Shown here in pieces: positions 58,929 to 60,272 of a DNA stretch of 64,000 nucleotides (the first letter of the stretch is position 1; each line of letters opens with the position of its first letter). The DNA comes from Saccostrea cucullata. Lineage: Eukaryota. The stretch spans positions 124,001-188,000 of the forward strand of contig NW_026928348.1 of NCBI RefSeq assembly GCF_032062105.1. Direction: 5' to 3'. A model generated the notes under the pieces. The model was given only the letters and a program-made list of their open reading frames with translations, was not told the DNA's origin and ran no database searches. Made by a program: the position numbers and the translations under genes.

Positions 58929-60272
58929 CTATAATTGATTTAAAATATTTTTAAATGTTTTGATATCACTGTCATTTGCATACTTCAACAAAATTCTCTT
59001 TGCCATAATAACATCCCCTTTACTTGGATCAAATGACTCCCATACTCGCTCGCATTCTTGCTGATTAAATTTTGAAGACTTCTCCGAAAATCCAAACCAC
59101 AAATCTTTGTAATCATTTTCACATCCATTACCATAGTAACACAAAAGTTTAAGTGCAAAACCTACAGAAGACCAAGATCTGTAGGCATGAGAAATTTCAT
59201 TGTCATACAGTTCTACTAGATTTTTAACATCCGTAAAATAGGGGGTCACAATTCTGCCAGTAAATTTTGGGGAAATTCTTGAATAATTCTTATTCTTGTC
59301 CACTTGATTTTGACTTGAACACAACTTGGATTTCAGGGAATTGTACATACTTAGTTCCTCTTCTCCAGATTCTTCAATGGACTGAATTTCTCTTTTGAGA
59401 TCTTCCCCAGCTGCATCTGATATTTGTGAACATTTCTTGTACCTAATAGAGAATCTGTCCACCCAATAAAAGACGTCACTTTCTGAATTCAAATTTAGTG
59501 TAAATGGCTGTAACCGTTCACCATACTTGAAAACATAATTTACAGCATAAGGATAAAGATCACAATGTTTCTGAGAACCAAGCATGAACCAAGGATTTTT
59601 ACCTATCTGGTCAATAACAATTTTAAACTCCTCCTCCTCTGAAGTCTCTTTTTTAACAGTTTCCGCAATGGGAATGTGAAATAGTTTATTGTGTAGATTT
59701 GTTGGAAAAACTAAGTCAGGGAAAATGGCATGAATTCCTTCCTTGTTTCCACTTTCCACAGTCAAATTCTTCTTTCTCTGCATAATATAAGCAACAAGCA
59801 ATCTATCAGTTTTTACAGAGAATGGATCAGGCAGATATTCCAAACTCTTCTCAACATAAAGATTCAATAAATGTTCAATATACTCTTCACTCAGCCCAGA
59901 TGAAGAAGAATCTTTTTTCTCAACGTCCACATCAACTCGCAAGGGAGAATATACTGTGGGTAATTCTAATAATGTCATATACTGACCATCAATGACCGCT
60001 CTAGAATATTCTCGCAAAAAAGTCTCATTATCTACTTTTGGCACATGAAATTTTCGGGGTGGATTCATGGATACATGTGTAATAGGGGTGTCCTCTGATT
60101 TTCTTTCTATCCCATATCTTTCAGATATAGCTTTCCTACGAGCAAATGTATTCATGATTACATTTTCATCTGTTTTCCATCTATCACTGAGAGAGAATTT
60201 TCCATTTGTACAACATCTTGTGAATGTATCTTTCCATACTTTGTTCACTCTTTGTGGATATTTTCCAAGCAT
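58929..60272 (-). CDS. AEP-superfamily primase with PriCT-2-like C-terminus, resembling the primase half of large-DNA-virus D5-type proteins (447 aa)
   Basis: Motif I PLRVDVD, motif II KEGIHAIFPDL, motif III IVIDQ followed by PWFMLGSQK. C-terminal YRSWSSVGFALK..LWFGFSEKSSKFNQQECERVWESF fits PriCT-2. Uninterrupted ORF with aaaATG context; no helicase domain. Confidence 0.8.
   Translation of the reverse strand: MLGKYPQRVNKVWKDTFTRCCTNGKFSLSDRWKTDENVIMNTFARRKAISERYGIERKSEDTPITHVSMNPPRKFHVPKVDNETFLREYSRAVIDGQYMTLLELPTVYSPLRVDVDVEKKDSSSSGLSEEYIEHLLNLYVEKSLEYLPDPFSVKTDRLLVAYIMQRKKNLTVESGNKEGIHAIFPDLVFPTNLHNKLFHIPIAETVKKETSEEEEFKIVIDQIGKNPWFMLGSQKHCDLYPYAVNYVFKYGERLQPFTLNLNSESDVFYWVDRFSIRYKKCSQISDAAGEDLKREIQSIEESGEEELSMYNSLKSKLCSSQNQVDKNKNYSRISPKFTGRIVTPYFTDVKNLVELYDNEISHAYRSWSSVGFALKLLCYYGNGCENDYKDLWFGFSEKSSKFNQQECERVWESFDPSKGDVIMAKRILLKYANDSDIKTFKNILNQL

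Follow-up and report, generated by a model that had tools for sequence, protein, structure and literature searches.

The window, a 64,000-nucleotide stretch of the genome of the oyster Saccostrea cucullata (NW_026928348.1, positions 124,001 to 188,000), contains a single-copy gene for a primase-polymerase with an AEP catalytic domain and a PriCT-2 domain. We read the gene, with a probability of about 0.6, as captured from a giant DNA virus, with a product that is predicted to be imported into the mitochondrial matrix and would likely prime or re-prime mitochondrial DNA (mtDNA) synthesis there. A narrower version, in which the protein would be a dedicated mitochondrial DNA primase from a giant virus that initiates the strands of a one-strand-coded mtDNA, is put forward tentatively. 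If true, this would be the first animal case of a viral primase in the mitochondrial replisome and an independent repeat of the kinetoplastid enzymes PRI1 and PRI2. A family-wide viral primase with a matrix presequence would mean that an animal lineage added a core mtDNA enzyme from a giant virus, and one small gene with one active site would offer a handle on how the one-strand-coded mtDNA of bivalves is primed or rescued from damage. Even without a mitochondrial role, the gene is a clear case of an NCLDV replication gene that was domesticated long ago in an animal; its annotation is 'uncharacterized' throughout. A full-text search of the main texts of a largely open-access literature returned no paper on it.

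An intact primase gene with host-like structure

The first-pass annotation of this DNA described an intact open reading frame with three AEP motifs and PriCT-2, and this description holds. The frame has zero internal stops in the ORF list and translation, its 447-residue product matches both Pfam families (Table 1), and the motifs are invariant across an alignment of 89 rows. A Pfam scan of the protein gave no match to DNA_primase_S (PriS) or Herpes_UL52. The PriCT-2 domain aligns with 8wvz_A with a Z score of 6.2 and an rmsd of 3.6 over 101 aligned residues (VIA-align), and the C-terminus lies one helix past this domain, directly before the start of D5_N in the viral relatives. The GC content of the ORF (0.345) is similar to that of the whole window.

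The same annotation had called the gene intronless, which is correct for the coding sequence, a single exon, and probably incorrect for the transcript. Between a good splice acceptor and the ATG, which stands in an AAA-ATG context, are 21 nt of 5′ UTR that include an in-frame TGA, so that a 5′-UTR intron is probable. Acceptor, in-frame stop and candidate AATAAA would together fit an ordinary host gene of this structure. One M. gigas gene model has a longer N-terminus, the counterpart of which is absent from the window.

Table 1. Features of the primase gene and its surroundings, in positions of the window.
Feature	Position	Strand	Evidence or remark
Coding sequence, 447 aa, single coding exon	58929..60272	-	AEP_C962R + PriCT-2; ends at PriCT-2/D5_N boundary
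Predicted mitochondrial presequence, aa 1-28	60189..60272	-	Own rule; Arg19 at 60216-60218
AEP catalytic domain, PF23162, aa 65-248	59529..60080	-	Pfam AEP_C962R, E 1.9e-36; fold alignment
Motif I, D114-x-D116 (C962R D97/D99), metal binding	59925..59933	-	Alignment to C962R
Motif II, G179-I-H181 (C962R H157), nucleotide binding	59730..59738	-	Alignment to C962R
Motif III, D221 (C962R D200)	59610..59612	-	Alignment to C962R
Y242 (C962R Y221), contacts triphosphate	59547..59549	-	Alignment to C962R
PriCT-2 helical domain, PF08707, aa 350-418	59019..59225	-	Pfam PriCT_2, E 6.6e-12
Pyrimidine tract and AG splice acceptor (60294-60295)	60273..60320	-	Sequence
AATAAA, candidate polyadenylation signal, about 240 nt past stop	58685..58690	-	Sequence; between primase and NACHT-type gene
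Multi-exon DUF4062/NACHT-type gene	51030..57212	-	Exon-bearing frames 56773-57078, 55782-56171, 51030-51236
Non-autonomous DNA transposon, 777 bp	60642..61418	.	33-nt TIRs; 8-bp target duplication GCAGAACT

Active site and fold of the AEP domain

The AEP superfamily is defined by motifs I (hhhDhD), II (sxH) and III (hD) (PMC4538821), and the oyster primase has all three. In the C962R protein of African swine fever virus (ASFV), residues D97, D99, H157, D200 and Y221 have been shown to bind metal and dNTP (PMC10516667); all five are identical in the oyster protein. Alignment with viral-type relatives revealed E103, D114, D116, G179, H181, D221 and W228 to be invariant, with motif positions taken from the 89-row alignment, as a 138-row alignment set motif III one column off. 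Motifs I, II and III and the tyrosine are kept in all 60 full-length oyster sequences, from four genera. The earlier suggestion of a nucleotide-polymerising enzyme would be in keeping with this intact active site.

An AlphaFold model of the oyster primase reached a pLDDT of 83 with 89 alignment rows (46 with only 8 rows). In VIA-align the model superimposed best on the AEP domain of C962R (8iqb_A; Z 18.1, rmsd 4.2, 234 aligned), followed by human PrimPol (Z 12.5, rmsd 3.9, 206 aligned); Z scores were lower for poxvirus D5/E5 (11.0-11.6), herpes primase (10.1) and cellular primases (6.0-6.7, with human primase at 6.7). The top Foldseek matches were ASFV C962R in the PDB and mimiviral D5-like proteins in BFVD. 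A search of PDB sequences with an oyster-only profile gave no match.

These comparisons separate the oyster protein from the cellular primases PriS/Prim1, with which it has only the AEP fold in common and which differ in clade and architecture. PrimPol (CCDC111) shares its AEP clade and fold, but carries a UL52-type zinc finger where the oyster primase has PriCT-2, and the oyster has a separate multi-exon PrimPol gene on another contig.

A probable viral origin of the primase

A profile of 8 oyster proteins was searched against 1.84 billion representatives and gave 768 matches at E ≤ 0.001, of which the best 150 were examined. Rank 1 was an oyster cluster. Ranks 2 to 4 (P0063-P0065) resemble C-to-T converted, bisulfite-type fragments of the oyster gene; these artefacts were removed before every count. 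The remaining 146 of the best 150 begin at E 6.7e-24 and have about 25% identity to the oyster primase. Among them, 116 are at least 800 residues long, the top ones having 850-950, and 127 have a D5_N-like region, as judged with a profile that was built from such matches and is hence partly circular. Pfam scanning of ten of the best viral-type matches found AEP_C962R, PriCT-2 and D5_N in every one. Names were looked up for the 20 nearest of the 146 non-oyster matches and included one Marseillevirus D5 primase-helicase, three generic IMG primases and no eukaryote; a grouping with a vertically inherited eukaryotic family, which the first-pass annotation had named as the result that would speak against a viral source, is thus not what these matches display. 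More distant eukaryotic relatives may still be among ranks 151-768 of the profile search. In the Atlas, the two best clusters are 94-95% viral, mostly Nucleocytoviricota.

The closest architectural parallels are the D5-like/C962R primase-helicases of NCLDVs (ASFV, Marseillevirus, mimiviral), which are the best matches in both sequence and fold and in which AEP_C962R and PriCT-2 have the same order and spacing. In contrast to these enzymes, the oyster protein lacks D5_N, the SF3 helicase and the tail, and has about 40 extra N-terminal residues with presequence traits; its gene is inherited vertically by the host, in one copy, and probably has a 5′-UTR intron. Host genes flank it on both sides, and we saw no viral genome or integrated viral block around it. 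The earlier assignment to an NCLDV type rather than to cellular PriS or PrimPol is therefore borne out by the C962R fold match, the Atlas composition and the D5-like nearest relatives.

Trees were built from oyster and viral-type rows, and groupings with PrimPol, PriS, Polinton and kinetoplastid proteins were judged by sequence rank, Pfam and fold. Marseillevirus provides the best named BLAST match (26%), yet is not sister to the oysters in the tree; the row in that place, P0121, was flagged by the program as joined through a long branch. Pattern scans of viral, prokaryote and metagenome contigs and of phage records, which can detect close relatives only, yielded no close viral donor, and two of the viral-type matches could not be assigned to viral contigs.

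No D5_N match was found anywhere in the oyster genome at E ≤ 0.1, in agreement with the earlier claim that a D5 helicase is absent; the control of this search gave matches in 3 of 14 genomes. A D5_N-like match was likewise found in 0 of 62 oyster proteins, compared with the 127 of 146 viral-type matches above, and no fused, longer oyster form of the primase was found, which is weak evidence. The 19 viral-type matches without a D5_N-like match often end at or just past PriCT-2, and the Atlas also has AEP+PriCT-2 clusters of 436-444 residues. Many of these stand-alone viral-type forms may be contig fragments; helicase loss may also predate capture from the virus.

A single-copy gene conserved across oysters

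Searches of the genome with the protein, the AEP family and the PriCT-2 family each gave one match, the primase locus itself. The copy count called for by the first-pass annotation is thus one, and the gene is not one of many copies inside a transposon. Named orthologues, all 'uncharacterized', are present in Saccostrea echinata, Ostrea edulis, Magallana gigas, M. angulata and Crassostrea virginica; identity across Saccostrea, Ostrea, Magallana and Crassostrea is 59-89%, with S. echinata the closest named (89%). Two S. echinata records (P0002 and P0009) lie on different contigs and are 94% identical, representing a recent duplicate or uncollapsed haplotypes. Several accessions exist for one protein in O. 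edulis (4) and C. virginica (3), which suggests transcript variants that differ in their UTRs; together with the many members that come from short assembled contigs, this hints at expression.

In an IQ-TREE analysis of 45 rows (10 oyster and 35 chosen viral-type; the bootstrap had not fully settled) the oyster rows group as a single clade (100/100) with a stem 1.0 changes per site long; a 138-row FastTree also recovered this clade. The split between Saccostrea plus Ostrea and Magallana plus Crassostrea appeared in 200 of 200 bootstrap trees, in agreement with the published oyster tree, where Ostrea groups with Saccostrea (PMC3214155). No orthologue from other bivalve families is present among the best 150 of the 768 profile matches; this is informative, since such an orthologue should outrank viral proteins of 25% identity. 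Mean identity among the four lineages is 70% in the AEP domain, 64% in PriCT-2, 41% in the linker and 36% in residues 1-27, a pattern that, as far as sequence comparison can tell, is that of selection on a catalytic protein.

Taken together, the single clade of orthologues, the retained motifs and the NCLDV-type next relatives and fold support both viral origin and domestication. We are highly confident that the primase derives from an NCLDV-type virus, and equally so of its domestication in oysters; the proposal of a domesticated viral gene in the first-pass annotation is upheld by the one copy, the family-wide orthologues and the fully supported clade.

A predicted mitochondrial presequence

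The feature that the first-pass annotation missed is the leader, a predicted mitochondrial presequence. There are 65 residues before H66 in the oyster protein, against a median of 26 in the viral-type proteins, of which 7 of 124 have at least 60. Residues 1-33 lie outside the fold, with pLDDT below 50 in the model of overall pLDDT 83. The leader of the window protein starts with Met-Leu, has a net charge of +5 and contains the protein's highest helical hydrophobic moment. Matrix presequences are described as N-terminal, basic, acid-poor, amphipathic and divergent in sequence, being cut by MPP and trimmed by Icp55 (PMC3673636), and the oyster leader is likewise basic, acid-poor, amphipathic and unconserved in sequence.

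All 18 distinct oyster leaders start with Met-Leu and share Arg19; their net charge ranges from +3 to +6, and none has more than 2 acidic residues (0-2). The motif at Arg19 is of the R-x-[YC]-[TS] or the Arg-Tyr-Ser type, with Tyr at position 20 or 21 in 16 of the 18; the window protein and one S. echinata copy have RCCT, with Cys where the canonical motif, Arg-x-(Tyr/Phe/Leu)-(Ser/Ala/Thr), has Tyr, Phe or Leu. In 7 of the 11 oyster proteins, no other window along the chain reaches the hydrophobic moment of the leader; in C. virginica the leader's moment is weaker. A home-made presequence rule, with thresholds taken afterwards from the oyster sequences, was passed by 11 of 11 oyster rows, which amount to about four independent lineages, and by 0 of 124 viral-type N-termini; in controls, a single one of 2972 internal windows passed, and none of 7 further host ORFs from the window did. 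Two of 60 oyster leaders, at net +3, fall below the charge threshold, and the N-terminus of the genome's own Twinkle passes for charge and moment and fails for the motif. No peroxisomal or secretory signal is apparent by eye in the oyster primase, and an Atlas search with residues 1-64 was uninformative (best 0.84). On these traits, import of the oyster primase into mitochondria is probable.

The alternative that best survives is a domesticated viral primase-polymerase of nuclear or dual location that would be a second enzyme of the PrimPol kind for repriming and gap filling, with the leader serving as a basic DNA-binding or regulatory tail. The intact active site would suit this role, as would the proposed function of C962R in repair (PMC10516667) and the precedent of PrimPol, an enzyme of presumed viral descent that works in both nucleus and mitochondria (PMC4538821). 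We consider it unlikely, as the leader has drifted to 36% identity yet keeps its charge, amphipathy and Arg19 motif, which is the pattern of a cleaved presequence, and a canonical PrimPol is already present in the oyster genome.

A possible role in mitochondrial DNA synthesis

Host-encoded enzymes of this plan have a mitochondrial precedent. PRI1 and PRI2 of T. brucei are mitochondrial AEPs of the NCLDV-herpes clade with PriCT-2, related to viral primases and needed for kinetoplast DNA replication (PMC4538821, PMC10719067). The oyster primase is similarly a host-encoded AEP plus PriCT-2 protein with no D5 helicase, but it belongs to another eukaryotic supergroup; the trypanosome proteins are larger (PRI2 is 129 kDa) and act on kinetoplast DNA (PMC10719067), and mitochondrial function has been shown for them whereas it is predicted for the oyster primase. 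Neither PRI1 nor PRI2 was recognised by name among the 20 of 146 nearest matches looked up, and the oyster and trypanosome captures were probably independent. We take PRI1 and PRI2, too, to lack a helicase. Because the oyster protein combines the two-domain plan of PRI1/PRI2 with a predicted presequence, a convergent mitochondrial primase-polymerase is the simplest reading.

According to this model, a D5-like primase-helicase gene would have been captured once, before the divergence of Ostreinae, Saccostreinae and Crassostreinae; D5_N and the helicase would have disappeared, either ahead of the capture or following it, and the gene would have gained a host promoter and 5′-UTR intron. The basic amphipathic leader would be read by the mitochondrial import machinery, with MPP cutting after Arg19+1 and one residue then trimmed off (the R-3 route). 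In the matrix, the AEP domain, through D114, D116, D221 and two metal ions, would synthesise short primers on single-stranded mtDNA or elongate 3′ ends there; host Twinkle would supply the unwinding once done by the lost viral helicase, and Pol gamma would extend the products. The enzyme might either start strands at origins, as PRI1/PRI2 do in trypanosomes, or serve in re-priming and gap filling after damage, as has been proposed for C962R and PrimPol.

Biochemical work on C962R provides a guide to what such a domain can do. On its own, the AEP domain can extend primers with dNTPs, with less activity than full-length C962R; other truncated forms were unstable (PMC10516667). The sections on C962R in that paper demonstrate primer extension with dNTPs, contain no test of de novo priming, describe no clear terminal transferase activity and give the authors' proposal of a repair role (PMC10516667). 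Given this activity and proposed role, repriming or gap filling in the oyster is as plausible as priming at origins.

The oyster genome keeps mitochondrial RNA polymerase, Twinkle and exons of PrimPol. With the usual replication kit present, the viral enzyme would be an addition rather than a replacement, and no gap demands a new primase. Loss of PrimPol was considered as a reason for the capture and rejected, since PrimPol exons are present: a search at E 0.001 was blank, and later searches located them at G000:C1012, about 179.8-182.4 kb, with motif II and the zinc-finger ligands. Animal Twinkle is not known to have primase activity. The TOPRIM-region exon of the oyster Twinkle reads as human-type (a weak match, E 0.25); immediately upstream of this gene (G000:C18888), on the same strand, is an FHA/BRCT-type gene that we take to resemble nibrin.

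In animals, the priming of mtDNA is attributed to mitochondrial RNA polymerase, assisted by PrimPol (PMC4419789). In oyster mtDNA every gene is on one strand (PMC3214155), and one-strand transcription has been suggested for such genomes, a gene arrangement shared across Pteriomorphia (PMC9247169); with transcription of one strand, the other mtDNA strand would be without transcript primers. Against a direct link, this trait is shared by many bivalves and the primase gene was found only in oysters. It was also noted in 2015 that a complete gene for the Pol gamma accessory subunit was not found in C. gigas by the authors of that study (PMC4419789).

A mitochondrial function outside routine mtDNA replication has also to be weighed, in which the protein would make short oligonucleotides directed at RNA, at a mitochondrial parasite or for a stress signal. 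The leader evidence applies to it equally, the standard replication genes are present in the genome, and AEPs have varied roles (PMC4538821). This is improbable in our view: PriCT-2 and a template-dependent active site have been retained, C962R is described without clear terminal transferase activity (PMC10516667), and the sole mitochondrial precedent with the AEP+PriCT-2 plan in the sources consulted is a DNA primase (PMC4538821, PMC10719067).

Genomic neighbourhood

On the same strand, the NACHT-type gene has its candidate start at 57212 or 57175, 1.72-1.75 kb downstream of the primase stop codon, in line with the first-pass annotation's estimate of about 1.7 kb. A functional tie between the two genes finds no support, the primase's own stop and AATAAA lying between them. 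The DUF4062 and NACHT Pfam matches are each on a single exon and below the cut-off. Two near-identical exon-like frames within this gene region, 51366-51512 and 52650-52796 (-), indicate a local duplication.

Three intronless Mab-21 nucleotidyltransferase ORFs are also present in the window, at 3093-4628 (+), 5635-7743 (-) and 21951-24125 (-), the two long ones ending in TPR-like repeats; presumably they are of the cGAS-like receptor type. With these three ORFs and the NACHT-type gene in the same window, and with PriCT-2 being part of the PriCT2/D5_N ring of C962R (PMC10516667), an antiviral factor can be imagined that acts as a dominant-negative decoy against viral primase-helicase rings or makes an immune nucleotide for its neighbours. 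The decoy was the first-pass annotation's own suggestion, and it fares poorly: D5_N and the helicase are absent, the catalytic residues are kept though a decoy needs none, and the leader resembles a presequence. An antiviral role of either kind is distinctly improbable, given a single copy with a conserved core as opposed to an expanded, variable family, identity of only about 25% to any sampled viral primase, Mab-21 ORFs 35-56 kb distant, and a predicted matrix presequence that would keep the primase apart from viral factories and cytosolic sensors.

By-eye inspection of ORFs in the window and, for those of at least 90 residues, in 60 kb past its upstream end revealed none that looks viral, consistent with the earlier report of no other viral gene nearby. 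The accompanying claim that TIRs are absent is contradicted by the 777-bp TIR element 370 bp upstream of the primase ATG, which does not enclose the ORF. It has about 40 scored copies (383 candidates) and probably sits in the 5′-UTR intron or promoter of the primase gene. We take this element to be hAT-like. Carriage of the primase as transposon cargo (Polinton or hAT) was rejected, the gene having one copy and the TIR element being wholly upstream. The single coding exon and the nearby transposon might suggest a neutral remnant of some recent viral insertion, or a transposon passenger. Either is highly improbable: all 60 sequences, which span four genera and are 59-89% identical, keep the frame open and the catalytic motifs intact, the stem branch is long, and the TIR element does not surround the ORF.

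Other elements were noted in passing. Short palindromic repeats upstream of the primase gene (61963-62085 and 61798-61844) are probably small repeats, and an ORF at 13766-14257 (-) consists of a 10-codon unit in tandem and is probably an in-frame reading of a minisatellite. About 20 kb past the window end, a long Tyr/Pro/Ser-rich exon-like frame (L011 7087-8349, -) without a Pfam match looks like the tail of a host regulatory protein. Four paralogous single-exon membrane proteins of 215-231 residues (15538-16185, 29935-30630, 38468-39160 and 45406-46068, all +), two of which were scanned without a significant Pfam match, share a W-x-EDLPQI motif.
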